From the IMG/VR virus record IMGVR_UViG_2778261530_000011: 38,435 bases of DNA. One strand, written 5' to 3'. How positions within the stretch are numbered: the first letter of the stretch is position 1; the number at the start of each line of letters is the position of its first letter. The translations under genes and the position numbers were made by a program. Origin of the DNA: a virus. Its lineage: Duplodnaviria; Heunggongvirae; Uroviricota; Caudoviricetes. The notes beneath the pieces were generated by a model. It had not been told where the DNA came from, made no database searches, and saw only the letters and a program-made list of their open reading frames with translations. Positions 1 through 25,279 of this stretch are shown piece after piece.

Positions 1-90
1 TTGCCTCCCCCCCGTTGATGGGTAAAATAGCCGCAATTTTTCGTTTTCAACAAGCGCGGCGCGATGCCGCTTACTCAAGAAGAAAGAATT

Positions 91-165
91 ATGACGTTGT
101 CTCCTTATTTGCAAGAGGTGGCGAAGCGCCGCACTTTTGCCATTATTTCTCACCCCAATAATTAA
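91..165 (+). pseudogene. prfC: 5' remnant of peptide chain release factor 3 gene truncated at the prophage left junction (attL region)
   Basis: ATG at 91 translates [22 protein letters not shown], recognised as the RF3 N-terminus; the frame then reads N-N-stop at 163-165 instead of continuing into the GTPase P-loop. Confidence 0.6.
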
Positions 166-385
166 GCCCAAATTAAAGCTCTTTTACTCTTTCAAAATCC
201 TTTCAGTTAATTGAGATTGAGCTATATAACTCATTTAAATACATTTAGTTATGCGGATTCTTTAATTGAAAATTCTTTCATGTAACTTTAAATCGATCAG
301 CTTGCTTTCATCAAAAATCTGTACATATGCTTGTACATAATGTACAAAGCAGCAGAGGTGTTTTGCGATTTGTACAAGGTGAGTA

Positions 386-1903: not shown

Positions 1904-2401
1904 TCAAGATAGTCTATTCAGATCAGTATTAGGTGTGTTTCTTTTTGATGCAAAGATGGATTTGAATCTTTTTGAGTAACTATCAAAAAACCATTTTGTA
2001 TAATTACCTTCAATTTCCTCTAATATTGAATACTTCATCTCATGAAGTTCATTTTTATAATCACACTTTTTGCTTAACAAGTCTAAAGGTGTTGATCTGA
2101 TAGATGACAACTGTTCATCACATAATAATTTCTTACCAATCCTTTGTGATAAATGAGACAGCTGCATTTCAATTAATGAGACACTGGAGGCTAAAAAATT
2201 ATCCAACTCTAATTCTTTAGTATCTCTAGAAGAGAGCTTATCTAAAACATTATCAAAAAGAGATTCTATTTGCTGACAGATTTTATCCTTTTGCCTTGAA
2301 ATATCATTTCGCTTGAATGCTCTATTGTTGAAATAAGACGCAACAAGCCAACCAATTATAGCAATTACAATACTTGTATAATTAACCTCTTCCTGCATCA
2401 C
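1904..2401 (-). CDS. Hypothetical membrane-anchored protein (single N-terminal TM helix, charged or coiled C-terminal domain); third gene of cargo cassette
   Basis: 165-aa ORF; hydrophobic stretch IVIAIIGWLVASYF near the N-terminus; start overlaps the stop of the upstream gene; AT-rich codon usage. Confidence 0.5.
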   Translation of the reverse strand: MMQEEVNYTSIVIAIIGWLVASYFNNRAFKRNDISRQKDKICQQIESLFDNVLDKLSSRDTKELELDNFLASSVSLIEMQLSHLSQRIGKKLLCDEQLSSIRSTPLDLLSKKCDYKNELHEMKYSILEEIEGNYTKWFFDSYSKRFKSIFASKRNTPNTDLNRLS

Positions 2402-2714
2402 TCTCTGCCTTATTCAATCGTTCATCAATCAAGGTCTCAATACTCTTAATATCTTTATGAGTATAAGTTAGTTTTTTCTTAAGTTCGCTTAATGTGTAGC
2501 CTTCTACTCGGATCAAGCCACCAAACGCTTCATCAATAAATGAACGCCCATAACGGTTATATCCAGTCAACTCAACATGAACTAAATCATACTCTTTGAG
2601 AAAGCCTGCCAGATATTTGCGAAAGTTTTCCCCACAGCCTGCCCCATCGTCTGGATAGCGCCCGTAAGGCTTACTGTTGAAGTCTTTGATAACATTGATG
2701 TTTTTAGTCTTCAT
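2382..2714 (-). CDS. STAS-like small protein (DUF4325-like, anti-sigma-antagonist-like fold)
   Basis: 110-aa ORF; size and sequence character (SFIDEAFGGLIRVEGY) recalled as DUF4325, which typically accompanies GHKL ATPases; overlaps flanking genes by 11 and 20 nt. Confidence 0.5.
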   Translation of the reverse strand: MKTKNINVIKDFNSKPYGRYPDDGAGCGENFRKYLAGFLKEYDLVHVELTGYNRYGRSFIDEAFGGLIRVEGYTLSELKKKLTYTHKDIKSIETLIDERLNKAESDAGRG

Positions 2715-3813
2715 AGCTGACCTTGATGTTCCACTGAATTAAAGTACCTGGTACTTTATGAGTTAACTCATTAATTTTATCACCTTTCTTATTAGAAAGC
2801 TTGAACATACCTAAATTACTGTAAATCCAAAGATTTCCATGTTCATTATTTAGTACTAGAGCTTTAATACTCTTACTTCCTTGACCATGTTTATCATTGG
2901 CTGTACCGGTTACGTCTCCAATCATAGAAATTGCTATTTTTACTGCATCAGAAACAATACCTACTTTTACTTTAGAGCGCTCTTTATAACCTAAACCTAT
3001 TCTCTCAAGTTCTTCGTTAACCGCAACCTTTAGATCTGGATATTTTGATTTGAGCGTACTCATAAACCATGTCTTTTGCATTACAGTTTCAGGTATACCA
3101 ACACCTTCATCATATATAGCAAGATAAAGCTGGTCATGAATTACGTGACATGCAAGCCACCATCGTTTCTCATCATTATTTTTATGCGGATAGGCGTGTA
3201 AACCAACATTATTTATTGCTTCCTGAACAGCATCTGCATATGTATGTTCTGTTTCAGGTTTCATCTTGTTTTTATAAATTTCTTTCTGGATGAAATCTAT
3301 AATCTCATCTCTATATTCTCCTCCTACCCCGCTAATAATGGGCAAGTTTTCAACGTTTTCGAAGACAGGTTTTAATTTTTCGCCCCGACATAAGGCGACA
3401 AGACCTGAGTCTCTTAAAAGCTGATTAACTTTAAAATCTGTTGAAAATAATAATCTGTACGATAAACCTTTACGAATTGAAGTTTCAACACTGGCATAAA
3501 GTATTACTAATGCTGCCATTTTTATTGTTTTTGTATTTGTAAAATCTAAATATAATCTCTCATCAGGATTATATTTTTTATTCCTGACGTGATTTATCGA
3601 GTGTAGAGAGTGCGCAAAAAAATTAGGCTTATCTGGTGAATATATTGAAAACTCAGATGGAAACCGAATAAAGGTATTATCTTTTTTCTTTTGAGATTTT
3701 TTTTGTTGACGAAACTGCGAATACTCTTTCCCTTGACGGGAAACACTTCGCTGCCATCTTTTAAAAGCCAGCCTAATTCTTACACTTTTTTCCTTATTGG
3801 CCTTGTTTTCCAT
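2704..3813 (-). CDS. GHKL-superfamily (histidine-kinase-like) ATPase with uncharacterised N-terminal half
   Basis: 369-aa ORF; N-box-like EAINNVGLHA, G1 box DEGVGIP (DxGxG), G2 box GQGSKS in the C-terminal half; lysine-rich N-terminus; putative AGGGGA SD upstream of the ATG at 3813. Confidence 0.6.
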   Translation of the reverse strand: MENKANKEKSVRIRLAFKRWQRSVSRQGKEYSQFRQQKKSQKKKDNTFIRFPSEFSIYSPDKPNFFAHSLHSINHVRNKKYNPDERLYLDFTNTKTIKMAALVILYASVETSIRKGLSYRLLFSTDFKVNQLLRDSGLVALCRGEKLKPVFENVENLPIISGVGGEYRDEIIDFIQKEIYKNKMKPETEHTYADAVQEAINNVGLHAYPHKNNDEKRWWLACHVIHDQLYLAIYDEGVGIPETVMQKTWFMSTLKSKYPDLKVAVNEELERIGLGYKERSKVKVGIVSDAVKIAISMIGDVTGTANDKHGQGSKSIKALVLNNEHGNLWIYSNLGMFKLSNKKGDKINELTHKVPGTLIQWNIKVSYED

Positions 3814-4590: not shown

Positions 4591-4785
4591 CTACTCAATA
4601 ATTCCAGCAAATCTGTATATCTTGTGTGATGCCCATTTATTTGGGCAGGATTTAATATCCGGATCTGGAAAGTCAGGCCTGTATTTCTGGCCCGTTCTCC
4701 TGTTTACACTGTTCCAGCGAAGAACAGTCGATACTGAAACGCCACAGAATTCGGCAACTTGTTTTGTTGTCATTAAGTTGTTCAT
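4591..4785 (-). CDS. xis: Excisionase / AlpA-family HTH DNA-binding protein
   Basis: 64-aa ORF with TKQVAEFCGVSVSTVLRW helix-turn-helix; strong AGGAGG SD 6-7 nt upstream; position between int-proximal cargo and early-left genes. Confidence 0.75.
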   Translation of the reverse strand: MNNLMTTKQVAEFCGVSVSTVLRWNSVNRRTGQKYRPDFPDPDIKSCPNKWASHKIYRFAGIIE

Positions 4786-5405: not shown

Positions 5406-5917
5406 GCCGCATTTCCTTCTTGCTTATTAACGATTACACCGTCATATATTTCATTAAGGTGCCCTCTCAACTCCATGCGCCTTAATGCAGATAACATGTA
5501 ATCGCATTCAACCTGCTTATTCCCAATAAAAGGTTTATCTTCAGGGTTACCCCAACAGCAATTCCCCTTGGGCCATCCATGTACTTTCCGTACTCTTCCG
5601 TTAACAACGTGAAGTAATCCCCAGCCGGGAGGTAAATCCTCAACTGAAATAACTCCCGGCTCACTAATAAAGAATCGCCAGTCGCCCATGCCAAGTGAGG
5701 GATTTTTACGGAAACGCTTTTTTCTATCTGCCAACAAGTCAGCGCGAGAACACTTCGCCTCTATCAGGCATGATGCTGAATTTCTGAATCCCATAGCATC
5801 TGGCTGTTCTCCGGTACTGGTTACAGCTATAAAGCGGTCATGAAAACAAACCTTGAACCCGTTGCGCTTAAGGAACTTATACGCAATCTGACAGAGTTCG
5901 CGGTGTGTTAACGCCAT
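5402..5917 (-). CDS. Hypothetical protein, possible PD-(D/E)XK-fold (MmcB-like) nuclease
   Basis: ATG at 5917 preceded by AGGAG SD (the track's longer ORF begins upstream); D ... IEAK motif spacing suggests a restriction-endonuclease-like fold; function is inference. Confidence 0.55.
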   Translation of the reverse strand: MALTHRELCQIAYKFLKRNGFKVCFHDRFIAVTSTGEQPDAMGFRNSASCLIEAKCSRADLLADRKKRFRKNPSLGMGDWRFFISEPGVISVEDLPPGWGLLHVVNGRVRKVHGWPKGNCCWGNPEDKPFIGNKQVECDYMLSALRRMELRGHLNEIYDGVIVNKQEGNAA

Positions 5918-6093: not shown

Positions 6094-6852
6094 TTACAGT
6101 TTTTCATCGCTTTGCTCTCCTGCGTCTCCTTTGGTGCCAATATTTACAGCCTGACAAGCCTCTTTAAGCACCCAGTCAACAGCGTCCTTCCATGCTCCGG
6201 TTTCAGCTGGCGGATTCTCACACTTTACCTGTTCATAGAAGCGCACTGCTTTAACCAGTCCTTCCAGTACTACTGGCGATGGCTGTTTAGCTTCTAAATC
6301 AGCAATTCTGTCAACCACGGTATCGACGGCATCTGAAAAGCCGAACCAGTTACTCCACTCCGGCCTATCCCCGGTTGCTGCAAAATACATATCAGCTAAA
6401 GCAGACTCAGCATGGTCACGCTCATTGATGAGTTGCTCTTCGCTTTTCTCCAGTTCAGCAATACGCTTACTTCCATCCGAGATAACACCTTCGTAATATT
6501 CACGCTGCTCGTTGAGTTTTGATTTTGTCTCCTCAAGTTCAGCAACCAGTTTTCGAAGCCCTTCAATCTCACCATTGCGAGCAATGAGGTCGCGGCACAT
6601 GCTTTCGTTCTCATCCAGCAGTGCCAGCACGGTAGCCGGATTGGCTGCGGCTATGAATCGTTTATTGGCGCGATTATCCGGTCCTGAGCATGATGCTATG
6701 TAGTAATTGGCGTTCAGTCCGGCATCGGCAATTACTCCATGGTAGTCATCAGTACACCATTCGCCTGGTGTTGCATTTTCTGCCGCCAGTCGCAGAGCCT
6801 GATAGTTAATCTCGCTCACTGGTTGCCTCCTTTGCGAATCTGTTCCGCCCAT
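6094..6852 (-). CDS. Ea22-like early-left-operon protein
   Basis: 252-aa ORF; acidic coiled-coil middle and overall character recalled from ead/Ea22-like family proteins of lambdoid phages. Confidence 0.6.
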   Translation of the reverse strand: MGGTDSQRRQPVSEINYQALRLAAENATPGEWCTDDYHGVIADAGLNANYYIASCSGPDNRANKRFIAAANPATVLALLDENESMCRDLIARNGEIEGLRKLVAELEETKSKLNEQREYYEGVISDGSKRIAELEKSEEQLINERDHAESALADMYFAATGDRPEWSNWFGFSDAVDTVVDRIADLEAKQPSPVVLEGLVKAVRFYEQVKCENPPAETGAWKDAVDWVLKEACQAVNIGTKGDAGEQSDEKL

Positions 6853-9913: not shown

Positions 9914-10588
9914 TTAGGCCTTTATTGTGTATCTTCTTGGTTTTCCCGAGAAAATCACTGTACCAATTATAGAGCAATTACCGTTAATCTTAATGTAAGG
10001 CTCAGGCCAGTTTGGGTTTAATGCTTTGAGATAACGCTGTGTTCCATCTTCTATCAATCGCTTGAAGGTGGTTTCGCCTGTATCGTGCATCAATGCAATA
10101 ACGTCGTCACCGTGGCAGGCAGGGACTTCGGGATCAACAAAAATCATGTCTCCAGGGCGGTACTCATCAATCATTGAATCACCAATCACCCGCAAGATAT
10201 AAGTCATTTCGCCACAGGGTACAGGGCAGGGATACGTTTCTGCTGTGCTCAAATCAACCTCAGAATAGCCAACTTCTTTCCATGCTCCGGCCTGTACCCA
10301 TGATATGACAGGGACTAACGTTATTTGTTTGTTAGTGATTGAAACATCAGGTTTTTTTGTGATGTTCGTTGTCTGGTGTTCTTGATCAAGCCATCCGACA
10401 GGCAGGTCGAAACATTTTTCGATGTGCCGTGCCATGCTGTCACCGATATTTTTAGTAGCGCCATCCCCCATAAACCTGCTGGTTTGGGTTGGCTCGCGAT
10501 CAATCATGGTGGCAAAGGATGAATTTCCGCCAACACCATCTCTCAGTTTTCTGGCGTTAGACCGCCGGATGTCATGGATTGTTTTCAT
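9914..10588 (-). CDS. cI: CI-type prophage repressor (N-terminal HTH, C-terminal S24 LexA-like autopeptidase)
   Basis: 224-aa ORF; GDSM serine motif and downstream Lys of S24 peptidases; divergent from a Cro-like gene; ATG at 10588 has no SD, consistent with a leaderless PRM-type transcript. Confidence 0.85.
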   Translation of the reverse strand: MKTIHDIRRSNARKLRDGVGGNSSFATMIDREPTQTSRFMGDGATKNIGDSMARHIEKCFDLPVGWLDQEHQTTNITKKPDVSITNKQITLVPVISWVQAGAWKEVGYSEVDLSTAETYPCPVPCGEMTYILRVIGDSMIDEYRPGDMIFVDPEVPACHGDDVIALMHDTGETTFKRLIEDGTQRYLKALNPNWPEPYIKINGNCSIIGTVIFSGKPRRYTIKA

Positions 10589-10910: not shown

Positions 10911-11474
10911 ATGAGGCTAACCGTGGGTAAGTATCACTGGAAAGTAGAAAAACAGCCTGAGTGGTACGTGAAAGCTGTCAGAAAAACTATCGCAGCGTTG
11001 CCGGGTGGTTACGCTGAAGCAGCTGACTGGCTGGATGTAACAGAGAACGCATTATTTAACCGCCTTCGTGCCGATGGCGATCAGATTTTCCCGCTGGGAT
11101 GGGCAATGGTTTTACAGCGCGCGGCTGACACTCACTACATTGCGGATGCTGTCGCACAGTCTGCTGGTGGGGTGTTCGTATCGCTTCCTGAAATTGAGGA
11201 AGTAGAGAACGCCGATATAAACCAGCGCCTGCTGGAAGTCATCGAACAGATCGGGAATTACTCAAAGCAGATTCGTTCGGCAATCGAAGATGGGGTCGTG
11301 GAGCCACACGAGCAGACAGCAATTAATGATGAGTTGTATCTGTCAATTTCGAAGCTCCAAGAGCATGCAGCACTGGTCTACAAAATCTTTTGCGCTCCAG
11401 AAAAGAGTGACGCCCGCGAGTGTGCAGCTCCGGGCGTCGTGGCGTTTTGTGTCTGTGGAGAAACTAACGCATGA
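10911..11474 (+). CDS. YdaT-family / CII-like protein
   Basis: 187-aa ORF immediately after cro, as in Rac-type immunity regions; family assignment from recall. Confidence 0.5.
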   Translation: MRLTVGKYHWKVEKQPEWYVKAVRKTIAALPGGYAEAADWLDVTENALFNRLRADGDQIFPLGWAMVLQRAADTHYIADAVAQSAGGVFVSLPEIEEVENADINQRLLEVIEQIGNYSKQIRSAIEDGVVEPHEQTAINDELYLSISKLQEHAALVYKIFCAPEKSDARECAAPGVVAFCVCGETNA

Positions 11475-12307
11475 ACAGTTTAACGGCAAATAACCGTTTG
11501 TCGCAACAGCTGGTGGTCAGTGTCGCTGAACACCTGTTGTTACGGCATGAATGCAGATTACCAAATCACCTGGCTGTAAGTAACCACAGAGAACTTTACC
11601 TGACTGTGGGGGGCGAGTTGTGCGGGAACTTAACCGCTGGTTTCGTGACGGAAGAGGGCTTTATGTCCATGTTATTCGTTGGGAACCAGAAACACAGCGC
11701 GTTATCTATCTTCGCAAAGACTACCCGCATGAGTGCTTTAGTCCTTTGTGGAAATTCAGGCGTGATTTTGTTGAGTGTGAAGGACCACCAGCACATTGAT
11801 TCTGCCATTCCGGGACGTTACACTGTTCAGGCACCTTATAAAGCGGGTGACGGGATTGGCGTCCTGGAAATGTTATCGGCGATATATGACGCGCCAGCGT
11901 CTTTTTTATCGTCTGTGTCTGTGCACACCCAAATTATGGTGGGCTGGACGGGGGCACCGAAAGGTGCGCCGGTTTCCGATAACGCCGGTTACGCCAACCC
12001 CGTTCAGTTCACCACCAGCGAAATTGGCGTTTCCGGTGGTGAAGGTAATTCACTGTTATCGGAGGCTGCCATCATGGCTACTGTCCCAGCCCTCACTCGT
12101 CTGAATGATGAAGACTTACATAAACTCAGTTATGTAACAACTGCACTACGTGCTCTGCGCAAGGTAACTCTTTCGGATCCGCAGGCGCATCAGGTTTTGG
12201 TAGAAACCCTTCTTAACTTGCAGGCTGAACGTATTCGTCTGGCGGATAAGGCTAATTTTCATATTCACCGTCTCCTGAATATCAGCGGAGGGCATCGTCA
12301 TGCTTAA
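11471..12307 (+). CDS. Hypothetical protein
   Basis: 278-aa ORF; ATGA start/stop overlap with the upstream gene; no recognisable Walker motifs. Confidence 0.55.
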   Translation: MNSLTANNRLSQQLVVSVAEHLLLRHECRLPNHLAVSNHRELYLTVGGELCGNLTAGFVTEEGFMSMLFVGNQKHSALSIFAKTTRMSALVLCGNSGVILLSVKDHQHIDSAIPGRYTVQAPYKAGDGIGVLEMLSAIYDAPASFLSSVSVHTQIMVGWTGAPKGAPVSDNAGYANPVQFTTSEIGVSGGEGNSLLSEAAIMATVPALTRLNDEDLHKLSYVTTALRALRKVTLSDPQAHQVLVETLLNLQAERIRLADKANFHIHRLLNISGGHRHA

Positions 12308-17030: not shown

Positions 17031-17047
17031 TTTTGTGGAGAAAGTTG

Positions 17048-17410
17048 ATGCGTGATATGTATGAAGTATTGGACCGCTGGGGAGCATGGGCTGCAGCAGA
17101 AAATAGTGGTGTGGACTGGCAGCCGATAGCGGCTGGTTTCAAGGGACTTTTACCACACGGTAAAAAGTCACGTCTCCAGTGTGATGATGATGAAGGCATC
17201 ATGATAGACGGTTGTGTGGCTCGGTTGCGAAAGTATAAACCAGAGGAATATGAGCTAATCATAGCTCACTTTGTTATTGGTATCTCATTACGCACTATTG
17301 CCAAGAAGAGAAGATGTTCAGATGGCACAATTAGGAAGGAATTGCAGACTGCCATGGGGTTTATCAGCGGTGTAATAATAACTATAAACCCCATTATGGT
17401 AGTTAATTAA
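17048..17410 (+). CDS. Late-gene antiterminator Q-like protein (small Q family)
   Basis: ATG at 17048 with GGAG SD; 120 aa; last + strand gene before the lysis cassette; family assignment from recall and position. Confidence 0.55.
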   Translation: MRDMYEVLDRWGAWAAAENSGVDWQPIAAGFKGLLPHGKKSRLQCDDDEGIMIDGCVARLRKYKPEEYELIIAHFVIGISLRTIAKKRRCSDGTIRKELQTAMGFISGVIITINPIMVVN

Positions 17411-17978
17411 TGTGAATCCTATCACCAAGATAGTATAGTCCAAAAAATGTTGAAACAAGCATTTGCCATGTAAGGAATAAAAAGATAATGATATAGCACC
17501 AGTTTGCTATATCATTATTCAGTATGTTTATTAGTGGTGTGATAAAAGCGTTGAAAATCACTATGCATATGCTGAGGGCAGTTAAAAATGAAAATAACAT
17601 GCACAGAAATAATCTTCTGGTAAGTTTCTCTTGAGTGTCAACAATTCTACCATTTTCTTTTGTTCGTGTAATTTTAATAAAAGGAGTGCCATTAGTTCCT
17701 ATCAGAGGGTAGTCAATTTGTTCTCTGTTGAAAGTGGCTATTGCTGCAAGAGCTGCTATATAAAAACCTGGCAGATTTGATACAAATCCAGATATAGACT
17801 TAATAAAGCCGCCATCTTTTAGTAGGTCTGATGTAGGTATTTTAAATAAATAAAAGTAAAAAAAAGAAATCACAGCAAGCCCGGCAGGTGCATAAAAATC
17901 GTATGCGCACTTACCACTAATTCCCTTAATGAAAAGGTAACCAAACGGTCTAAATAAATGTGAAAATATACTAATCAT
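17403..17978 (-). CDS. Multi-pass (about 4 TM) inner-membrane protein; second gene of AT-rich moron
   Basis: 191 aa with four hydrophobic helices; GAGG SD 7 nt upstream; 3' end overlaps the Q 3' end by 8 nt. Confidence 0.6.
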   Translation of the reverse strand: MISIFSHLFRPFGYLFIKGISGKCAYDFYAPAGLAVISFFYFYLFKIPTSDLLKDGGFIKSISGFVSNLPGFYIAALAAIATFNREQIDYPLIGTNGTPFIKITRTKENGRIVDTQEKLTRRLFLCMLFSFLTALSICIVIFNAFITPLINILNNDIANWCYIIIFLFLTWQMLVSTFFGLYYLGDRIHIN

Positions 17979-17985
17979 ATTAGCC

Positions 17986-19014
17986 TCACATGACCTCGAT
18001 AATCTTATTCACAAACTCCATGTTAATACTATCATAAGAATCCTTTAAGCGCGAAGAAAAACCATTTATTACACTCTTTTTGATAAATGTTTTTTCCAGC
18101 CCATCCAGCCTTACATTTGAAGTTTGAAGGTCAACTTGTCTTGTGAATCCTGTCTCTGGCTCTTTGAATTTTATTTTTATTAAGTCATAACCTCCATTTT
18201 TATCTTCTTTAAAGAAGTTTGAGACAGATTTTATCCATCCAAGGACATTGTTGGGGCCATGGTTTGGTACTAAGCGTAAAGTACTTTCTTTAGGAATAAT
18301 AGCCGCGTTAACATCTGGCGCATTAATAGTTCTGTATTCATTCTTTACCAAAACGACATCAGAAAGTCCTTCTTTATTTATTTTATTGAACAAATCTTCA
18401 TCTAACTTTCCAGATATATCAAAGACTGGCTTGTATAATACTTTTATTTTTTTCTTTGTTAAACTTGACACTTCATTTGTTAAAGTGTTACATGAAAAGA
18501 TATCTTCATTATCTTTGGCTACGTTAAAGAGAACTTTATTCAGGAAACCATTTATTTTTGCTGTGGAAACTCCTGGTATTGGCATAAAACTCATGTCATA
18601 CGTTCGCATATTTCCGTCTAGAGAAATAATCATATGAGAAGAAACTTCGTAACCTTCACCTTCCTCATGTTTTGGTGATATTTCGGTGCGAACATCTGTA
18701 TTAATGTTTTTTAATACAGTAGTGCTTCCATTTTTATCTACAGCATTAATTAAAAGACCAAGATGGCTGGGTTTTTTATCGGCTCTGTTTGATAAGAATA
18801 TTACATCTTGTAAAGTTAAAACTAAGTCTCCTTTTTCATAACTGTGCATCATTGCTTTACAACGTACTATTTTAGAAGCAAGTTCACGCATTGTTGGTAC
18901 CGGGCAAACACAGTTCGATCTGATGCTATCATCAATTTTCTGTGTACGGTATTGTGTATCGATCGTAATAGTATGATGAGTTATTACTCTACTGAATGCG
19001 TCCAGTGTAGCCAT
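17986..19014 (-). CDS. Hypothetical soluble protein; first gene of AT-rich moron
   Basis: 342-aa ORF, AT-rich, no recognisable catalytic motif; no obvious SD at 19014, so the start could be at an internal Met. Confidence 0.55.
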   Translation of the reverse strand: MATLDAFSRVITHHTITIDTQYRTQKIDDSIRSNCVCPVPTMRELASKIVRCKAMMHSYEKGDLVLTLQDVIFLSNRADKKPSHLGLLINAVDKNGSTTVLKNINTDVRTEISPKHEEGEGYEVSSHMIISLDGNMRTYDMSFMPIPGVSTAKINGFLNKVLFNVAKDNEDIFSCNTLTNEVSSLTKKKIKVLYKPVFDISGKLDEDLFNKINKEGLSDVVLVKNEYRTINAPDVNAAIIPKESTLRLVPNHGPNNVLGWIKSVSNFFKEDKNGGYDLIKIKFKEPETGFTRQVDLQTSNVRLDGLEKTFIKKSVINGFSSRLKDSYDSINMEFVNKIIEVM

Positions 19015-22830: not shown

Positions 22831-23379
22831 ATGAAGGTTAATAAAAAGAGGCTTGCCGAAATTTTCAACGTGGACCCGCGGACGATTGAACGCTGGCAGT
22901 CTCAGGGACTCCCTTGCGCCTCCAAAGGTAGTAAGGGCATTGAATCTGTATTTGATACTGCCATGGCAATTCAGTGGTATGCGCAGAGGGAAACTGATAT
23001 CGAAAACGAAAAGCTCCGCAAAGAACTGGACGATTTGCGTGCGGCAGCGGAGTCAGATTTACAACCCGGCACCATTGACTATGAACGCTACAGGCTCACA
23101 AAAGCGCAGGCAGATGCGCAGGAACTGAAAAATGCCCGTGAAGACGGAGTAGTGCTGGAAACTGAACTGTTTACCTTCATTCTGCAACGTGTGGCACAGG
23201 AGATTTCGGGGATACTTGTGCGTGTGCCGTTGACATTACAGCGTAAATATCCGGACATTTCACCATCACACCTTGATGTGGTGAAAACTGAAATCGCGAA
23301 AGCCTCCAATGTTGCAGCTAAGGCCGGTGAAAACGTGGGCGGGTGGATCGATGATTTCAGACGCGCAGAAGGCAGCTAA
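22831..23379 (+). CDS. nu1: Terminase small subunit
   Basis: 182 aa, clear lambda Nu1 homologue (N-terminal winged HTH, IENEKLR motif). Confidence 0.9.
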
Positions 23380-25279
23380 TGCAGCCGGTGCGATAGCTAC
23401 AGGGCTTTTATCTCTCATTATTCCTGTTCCACTGACGACAGTTCAGTGGGCCAATAAACATTATTACCTTCCTAAAGAGTCGTCTTATACCCCGGGGCGG
23501 TGGGAAACACTGCCGTTTCAGGTTGGCATCATGAACTGTATGGGCAACGATCTGATTCGCACGGTTAACCTGATTAAATCTGCCCGTGTTGGTTATACAA
23601 AGATGTTGCTGGGAGTGGAGGCTTATTTTATTGAGCATAAATCACGCAACAGCCTTCTTTTTCAGCCCACGGACTCAGCTGCTGAAGATTTTATGAAATC
23701 TCATGTTGAGCCAACGATAAGGGATGTTCCTGCATTGCTGGAGCTGGCTCCATGGTTCGGAAGAAAACACCGCGATAATACGCTCACCCTGAAGCGTTTT
23801 TCCTCCGGTGTGGGGTTCTGGTGTCTGGGTGGTGCGGCAGCAAAAAACTACCGTGAAAAATCCGTGGATGTGGTCTGTTATGACGAGCTTTCCTCGTTCG
23901 AACCGGATGTTGAAAAAGAGGGTTCGCCAACCCTGCTGGGGGATAAACGTATTGAGGGCTCTGTATGGCCAAAATCCATTCGCGGCTCGACGCCTAAAAT
24001 CAAAGGCTCCTGCCAGATCGAAAAAGCCGCTAACGAGTCGGCACACTTCATGCGTTTTTATGTGCCCTGTCCGCACTGTGGGGAGGAGCAGTATCTGAAA
24101 TTTGGCGATGATGCCTCGCCTTTCGGTCTTAAGTGGGAGAAGAATAAGCCAGAAAGTGTTTTCTACCTTTGTGAGCATCATGGCTGTGTGATCCATCAGT
24201 CTGAGCTTGACCAGAGTAACGGGCGGTGGATCTGTGAAAACACGGGCATGTGGACCCGTGACGGCCTGATGTTTTTCAGCGCCCGGGGTGATGAAATTCC
24301 GCCGCCGCGCTCCATCACTTTCCATATCTGGACGGCGTACAGTCCGTTCACCACCTGGGTACAGATTGTCTATGACTGGCTGGATGCACTGAAAGATCCC
24401 AACGGCCTGAAAACCTTTGTGAACACCACGCTGGGCGAGACCTGGGAAGAGGCTGTGGGCGAAAAACTCGATCACCAGGTGCTGATGGATAAGGTTGTGC
24501 GTTACACGGCGGCGGTGCCTGCCCGGGTGGTTTATCTGACGGCGGGCATTGACTCGCAGCGAAACCGTTTTGAGATGTATGTCTGGGGATGGGCTCAGGG
24601 AGAGGAAGCCTTTCTGGTGGATAAAATCATCATTATGGGGCGTCCCGATGAGGAAGAGACGCTGTTACGTGTGGATGCGGCGATCAACAAAAAATACCGC
24701 CATGCAGACGGAACCGAAATGACTATTTCCCGTGTCTGCTGGGACATCGGGGGGATCGATGGCGAAATCGTTTATCAGAGGTCAAAAAAACACGGTGTTT
24801 TCCGGGTGCTGCCGGTAAAAGGCGCATCTGTCTATGGCAAGCCGGTGATCACCATGCCAAAAACCCGCAATCAGCGGGGCGTGTATCTGTGTGAAGTGGG
24901 GACGGACACCGCAAAAGAAATTCTCTATGCCCGTATGAAAGCCGATCCCACGCCTGTGGATGAAGCCACGTCGTATGCCATCCGTTTTCCTGATGATCCG
25001 GAGATTTTTTCGCAGACAGAGGCGCAGCAACTGGTCGCGGAAGAGCTTGTGGAGAAGTGGGAAAAAGGAAAGATGCGTCTGCTGTGGGATAACAAAAAGC
25101 GGCGTAACGAAGCGCTGGACTGCCTGGTGTATGCCTACGCGGCATTACGTGTGTCCGTGCAACGCTGGCAGCTTGATCTGGCTGTACTGGCAAAATCCCG
25201 GGAAGAAGAGACGACCCGGCCAACCCTTAAAGAACTGGCAGCGAAGCTGTCCGGAGGAGTGAATGGTTACAGTCGCTGA
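23351..25279 (+). CDS. A: Terminase large subunit
   Basis: Lambda gpA homologue; start placed at ATG 23351 overlapping the Nu1 3' end so that length matches lambda A; the track's longer ORF begins at 23309. Confidence 0.9.

Follow-up and report, generated by a model that had tools for sequence, protein, structure and literature searches.

The stretch of DNA analysed here (38,435 nucleotides, hereafter the window) opens with the beginning of a host gene. In our alignment, positions 1-155 match the yjjG-prfC spacer and the 5′ end of prfC in Escherichia coli K-12 MG1655 at 100%, an identity that is far beyond chance, and the likeness stops sharply at 156. The reading frame that crosses this boundary consists of 22 native RF3 codons (91-156) followed by the phage-derived AAT AAT TAA (Asn-Asn-stop). 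The first-pass annotation had read this frame as an RF3 N-terminal remnant of 24 codons left at attL, and the alignment to the uninterrupted K-12 gene bears it out: 22 codons are native and two foreign, and the match ends at 155 instead of running through 165. A chance ORF is ruled out by the 155 nt of K-12 identity. The integrase gene that had been placed 220 bp past the remnant's stop codon is also there, as a 407-aa ORF with integrase domains. The remnant had further been said to diverge before the P-loop; divergence it does show, but the break falls within the first codons of the G1/P-loop motif (S-H-P-D-A-G-K-T) and not ahead of it. The candidate native prfC promoter is stranded at attL, where it now points to the remnant and to int (Table 1), and no terminator-like site was found in the P′ arm. 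Over 1-1700 the nearest relative is 99.7% identical to the window, which is the value for EC416, where the NCBI pipeline labels the counterpart of the remnant an incomplete CDS; elsewhere (13500-38435), the complete E. coli genomes in the collection reach at most 98.3%.

Table 1. Features of the attL region and main prophage genes in the window
Feature	Position	Strand	Basis and remarks
Candidate native prfC promoter, TTGCCT-16-TAAAAT	1-28	+	Consensus scan, 9/12 matches; K-12-identical sequence
Truncated prfC remnant	91-165	+	ATG at 91, TAA at 163-165; reading and K-12 alignment
attL core, ATTATTTCTCACCC	142-155	+	Three-way attB/attL/attR alignment; 14 bp
Phage P′ arm, core-to-int segment	156-385	+	96-98% identical to the Ayreon and cdtI equivalents
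Four TGTACA motifs, candidate arm-type integrase sites	320-376	+	Starts at 320, 332, 341 and 371; first two 12 bp apart
Tyrosine integrase, 407 aa	386-1609	+	Pfam Arm-DNA-bind_3, Phage_int_M, Phage_integrase; transcription away from attL
Excisionase (recombination directionality factor), part of the integration module	4591-4785	-	PHROG 1553 'excisionase', E = 2e-34, full length
CI-type repressor	9914-10588	-	
Antiterminator Q	17033-17410		
Large terminase	23309-25279		

The sequence to the right of the junction had been taken for a prophage, and the gene content of the window confirms this. Besides integrase, excisionase, CI, Q and the large terminase, it encodes a CII-like activator, an O-like replication protein, lysis genes and tail genes, and the matching parts of other genomes carry annotations of portal, capsid, tape-measure and tail genes. 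The genome as a whole is mosaic. Its integrase shares 97% identity with a cluster of 2,139 E. coli integrases, the int/att module shares 95.8% DNA identity with the int region of phage cdtI, and 33 phage records, among them cdtI, Ayreon and Stx1a/Stx2c phages, match the segment 156-1609 at 95-98% DNA identity; Ayreon, cdtI and 2H10 are complete phage genome records with the same int/att module. Int/att kinship, the 14-bp prfC duplication (its second copy seen in relatives only) and lambdoid gene content and order all place the element among the lambdoid phages of prfC. These comprise cdtI (AB285204), the CC119 Stx1a/Stx2c-converting phages (LC727876-902), the O103 Stx1 phage of Ogura 2007, Ayreon, 2H10 and PhiR63_1, with 95-98% DNA identity to the window in int/att, and they share with it the 14-bp core, the attP mini-ORF and the arm repeats. 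The effect of a window-type phage on the RF3 N-terminus fits the description given for the O103 phage (PMC2323221). Unlike these relatives, the window has neither stx nor cdt, and carries a DUF4325 cassette near int and a PDC-M53 pair past Q.

The attachment core can be delimited precisely. The 14 bp ATTATTTCTCACCC are common to attB, attL, attR and attP, and strand exchange must be confined to them. The core had first been put at around 140-165; its location inside that range is right, and the three-way alignment together with the duplication annotated in GenBank narrows it to the span given in Table 1. The equivalent 14 bp carry the tag 'duplication due to insertion' in the Stx1a/Stx2c phage records of the CC119 study (LC7278xx, e.g. 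LC727891). The window holds a single copy of the core, against 0.02 expected by chance, and attR must therefore lie outside it. The repeat looked for at the far prophage end is present as a second copy in relatives such as EC416. Just past the core, stop codons stand in two of the three frames of the window phage (CAATAATTAA, 156-165).

In EC416, 47,766 bp separate the two cores, and the one at attR follows phage DNA with an in-frame ATG. The junction reads ...ttgtacatatgattgtacataatcaaagagacaacaatt ATG ACA AGC CTT TTG GCC GCA GAG GTA GCG AAA AGA AGA ACC TTT GCA ATT ATT TCT CAC CC/G GAC GCC GGT AAG... (the slash marks the break), with the ATG and 20 codons supplied by the phage and fused in frame to the body of prfC. 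The NCBI pipeline calls the hybrid a 528-aa release factor 3, compared with 529 aa for the native protein. Hybrid and native RF3 differ within the first 8-9 residues only, a stretch that varies among species, and the changed residues 2-8 belong to a region variable in both length and sequence across hosts. The attR junction is found in 700 of 5,426 complete E. coli genomes (about 13%), and attL with int in 699; prfC is annotated intact in every sampled lysogen. In Ayreon and cdtI, which are complete phage genomes, attP is contiguous with both arms, a 23-codon mini-ORF holds the core and int starts 220 nt downstream of this mini-ORF. Since the free phages carry the mini-ORF in attP, the RF3-like 5′ end and the Asn-Asn-stop tail are both phage sequence. 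The P arm and the coding segment are nearly invariant in the phage lineage, and in E. coli FY10 (NZ_CP095816.1; locus L135, 330-577) they have outlived the prophage, which has given way to IS26; the insertion sequence borders directly on some 135 bp of the P arm, with the phage-type 5′ end of prfC next to it. As the window's own attR lies outside it, the restoration of prfC in the source strain is inferred from these relatives; a phage-type attR there would show ...ATGACAAGCCTTTTGGCCGCAGAGGTAGCGAAAAGAAGAACCTTTGC before ATTATTTCTCACCC joined to the body of prfC.

Based on these results, we consider window 1-385 to be the attL of a cdtI/Stx1a-type lambdoid prophage, integrated site-specifically at prfC codons 18-22 (probability about 0.9). 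The 23-codon mini-ORF of the phage attP mimics the RF3 N-terminus and encloses ATTATTTCTCACCC. The integrase presumably engages the TGTACA repeats of the two arms and swaps strands within the core, whereby the host and phage reading frames trade their tails. In this exchange the native 22 codons, with the host promoter, gain the phage Asn-Asn-stop and become the remnant at attL, and the phage ATG and 20 codons gain the prfC body at attR, giving the intact 528-aa hybrid RF3. TGTACA occurs at six sites in the 38.4-kb window, four of them within 57 bp at 320-376, and four more times in the 236-bp P arm at attR. From this sequence evidence, we infer that the TGTACA/GTACA repeats are probably the arm-type binding sites of the integrase.

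A scan of IMG/VR for attP diversity returned E. coli prophages only, all close relatives 96-100% identical to the window prophage, and element-borne prfC 5′ ends were therefore compared for two lineages, the phage and SXT. The EVAKRRTFA codons, left of the core, show differences at 8 nt in 6 codons between phage and host, at 8 nt in 7 codons between SXT and host, and at 7 nt in 7 codons between phage and SXT, all of them synonymous. When 8 changes were placed at random, a fully synonymous outcome came up in 0 of 200,000 trials. Selection acting before capture, in the prfC of an earlier host, could explain the synonymous-only pattern in place of selection on the element. The codons for the conserved Arg-Arg of RF3 in this stretch are AGA AGA in the phage (EC416 attR, locus L002, ~5895-5905), CGA AGG in SXT (XH1815, locus L130, ~1480-1486) and CGC CGC in the host. 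AGA AGA and CGA AGG are rare codons in E. coli.

Is the rebuilt gene used? Phage 21 and e14 in icd resemble the window phage in that the replacement gene end keeps the ORF intact (PMC3603311), but they replace the 3′ end of icd and keep the host promoter and start, whereas the window phage replaces the 5′ end of prfC and consequently has to bring the promoter, the RBS and the start codon itself. The first-pass annotation had expected the far end of the prophage to supply a replacement promoter as well as a 5′ coding end. The coding end is there, in EC416, in the 700 genomes and in the attP of Ayreon and cdtI. The promoter half of the claim found no such support, as a consensus scan of the roughly 170-bp conserved P arm gave no convincing sigma-70 promoter facing prfC. 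The sole consensus match on the prfC-facing strand overlaps the LexA box of a dinI-like gene and is missing in Ayreon, and by eye the P arm offers no more than -10-like hexamers within its arm repeats (CATAAT, TACAAT), whose -35 partners are poor. Upstream of the dinI-like gene, which is divergent from the hybrid prfC and which Ayreon lacks, stand two LexA-box-like palindromes (CTGT-N8-ACAG; EC416, L002 ~6100-6150; cdtI, L216 476-520), about 150-200 bp from the start codon of the hybrid.

The lack of a convincing consensus promoter in so conserved a P arm is what one would expect if integration inactivated prfC, the hybrid ORF being intact but promoterless and lysogens being RF3 knock-downs or knock-outs. 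Ogura 2007 noted the loss of the authentic RBS and promoter and left open whether the hybrid is expressed (PMC2323221), and Bobay 2013 lists prfC among the genes disrupted by prophages (PMC3603311). In addition, prfC is not essential in E. coli (PMC2323221), and the viability of lysogens is thus no proof of expression. Against inactivation, the phage and SXT, whose integrases are only 39% identical, have both kept an ATG and an in-frame N-terminus with synonymous-only differences, and the intact annotation of prfC in every sampled lysogen points the same way. Analogous elements that target dusA (Durand et al., 2021, PMC8409611) have been shown by experiment to supply a promoter; like the window phage, they insert in the 5′ end of a housekeeping gene, but the target gene and the integrase family are different, and they are mobilizable islands, not phages. 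SXT/R391 elements, too, reportedly bring a promoter to prfC (Hochhut and Waldor, 1999, as cited in PMC8409611). We therefore regard loss of prfC function as unlikely, and think that the hybrid prfC is probably expressed, from phage DNA, and functional, the alternative being an intact but silent gene.

Integration might swap promoters as well as coding ends, the host prfC promoter passing to int and a phage P-arm promoter to the hybrid prfC, though we hold this to be improbable. An outward P-arm promoter amid the integrase arm sites would, in the circular phage, transcribe the mini-ORF and then int, and in the lysogen the same promoter would serve the hybrid prfC. Transcription from the host promoter (1-28) would then cross the remnant and reach int, no terminator standing between them, and a housekeeping promoter of the host would make Int production constitutive. 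The RF3 supply of the lysogen would in turn be set by Int-occupied arm sites, by the LexA-controlled dinI region and by the tandem rare codons AGA-AGA.

The same target raises the question of whether the element might itself be an SXT/R391-type conjugative element, or a phage satellite. SXT/R391 elements also target the 5′ end of prfC, break E. coli prfC at the same CACCC (window 151-155) and, like the phage, supply their own RF3 N-terminus. In XH1815, a laboratory E. coli transconjugant with SXT/R391, attL reads ...GCC ATT ATT TCT CAC CC/T GAT GCC... and attR reads ATG GCA AAC CAA GAT TTT CTT AAT GAA ATC AAT AAG CGA AGG ACC TTT GCT ATC ATC TCC CAC CC/G GAC..., with traG, eexS, setCD and setR near attR. 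Comparison with the phage junctions shows that ICE and phage break at the same CACCC, each with its own RF3 start. The integrases are homologous, the SXT-type Int being a full-length homolog of the window integrase, and GTACA-type repeats are common to both; in SXT, TGTACAAA pairs stand 12 bp apart on both arms. The identity between the two integrases, however, is only about 39% over residues 1-399, when near-identity of IntSXT (~99%) defines the SXT/R391 family (PMC2791158), and of the conjugative backbone (tra, setCD, setR) nothing is present in the window. The layouts also differ. SXT/R391 is conjugative, its int points toward attL from about 0.8 kb away from the core, opposite to the orientation in the window, and its attL remnant ends in DAAQPFNA-stop where that of the window ends in NN-stop; at the other end, setR lies upstream of the hybrid prfC and is co-directional with it, whereas the phage has the divergent dinI-like gene there. 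With CI, CII, O, Q, lysis, terminase, portal, capsid and tail genes in the window, and the same int/att module in the free phages Ayreon, cdtI and 2H10, a conjugative element or satellite is very improbable, and membership of SXT/R391 itself is ruled out by the integrase identity and the lack of tra genes.

The integrases nevertheless belong together. Cdt1-phage and SXT integrases have been grouped as a prfC-targeting cluster (Smyshlyaev 2021, PMC8138268), and the window integrase falls in this 'SXT cluster' (IntSXT subgroup) by its domains, its near-identity to the cdtI integrase, its homology to SXT Int and its prfC target, an assignment made on these features. A published primer for the SXT int region (PMC8386438) retrieved 42 metagenomic attL loci with remnants from many hosts, and had no match in viral contigs. 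SXT-type attL is found beside at least 20 different RF3 N-termini (L086-L127), including one from E. coli (L127), with DAAQPFNA-stop identical in all but two; so many N-termini imply many host species.

The scan of one genome per species extended the family further. It yielded at least 19 additional loci, in hosts that include Pantoea, Serratia, Pseudomonas, Halomonas, Microbulbifer, methanotrophs, Variovorax and Methylibium, with integrases 45-83% identical and the break after ...FAIISHP 220-255 nt upstream of int. In each, two GTACA motifs at a spacing of exactly 12 bp stand 134-166 bp from the core, and a third often follows about 38 bp further out. In 18 of 19 family members, the remnant frame closes within 12 codons past the core. 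Integrases of Morganella, Xenorhabdus and Photorhabdus (L017, L020-L032 and others), 46-49% identical, have no RF3 remnant upstream, and target specificity thus apparently switches within this range of identity. These recurrent, precise junctions, namely the break after ...ISHP 220-255 nt upstream of related int genes in at least 19 other genomes of many genera and the identical junction in about 700 genomes with matching attR, together with the duplicated core, effectively refute an origin of the remnant by deletion or rearrangement with the integrase adjacent by coincidence.

The arrangement is ordinary, and has already been published in every main element. The site prfC is known as a Stx-phage site with an altered RF3 N-terminus (Ogura 2007, PMC2323221), Stx1a and Stx2c phages have been described there (PMC10132054), and SXT/R391 is known at the 5′ end of prfC (PMC2791158, PMC4885824; for SXT, Hochhut and Waldor, 1999, as cited in PMC8409611). 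Integration in prfC having been documented since 1999-2007 for Stx, Cdt and other lambdoid phages and for SXT/R391, the present case carries little weight as a discovery. What our analysis adds is the arm-repeat layout conserved across the family, the scar in FY10 and a rebuilt frame that lists of 'disrupted' genes (PMC3603311) miss. About one in eight complete E. coli genomes has a phage-derived RF3 start, and FY10 keeps one after the loss of its prophage. The common GTACA arm-repeat layout joins phage, ICE and island integrases of Gamma- and Betaproteobacteria into one prfC-targeting system.

The window also carries several accessory features. A tRNA scan found none. Directly past int lies a three-gene cassette (1904-3813, minus strand) coding for a hypothetical protein of 165 aa, a STAS-like DUF4325 protein of 110 aa and a protein of 369 aa whose matches to histidine-kinase-like ATPases all stay below threshold (E ~0.01-0.05). 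PADLOC gave no match on this cassette; its position beside int suggests accessory or defence cargo. A candidate defence pair, PDC-M53, was detected by PADLOC at 17403-19014 (minus strand; B, E = 2e-54; A, E = 1e-31), directly downstream of Q on the opposite strand. This is presumably the position at which related prfC phages carry stx. Finally, two Rfam families score above the gathering threshold on the plus strand, isrK (11831-11907) and C4 antisense RNA (11932-12019), within a 278-aa ORF (11471-12307), a pair that we take to resemble the antirepressor control module of the P1/P7 type, here in a lambdoid early region.
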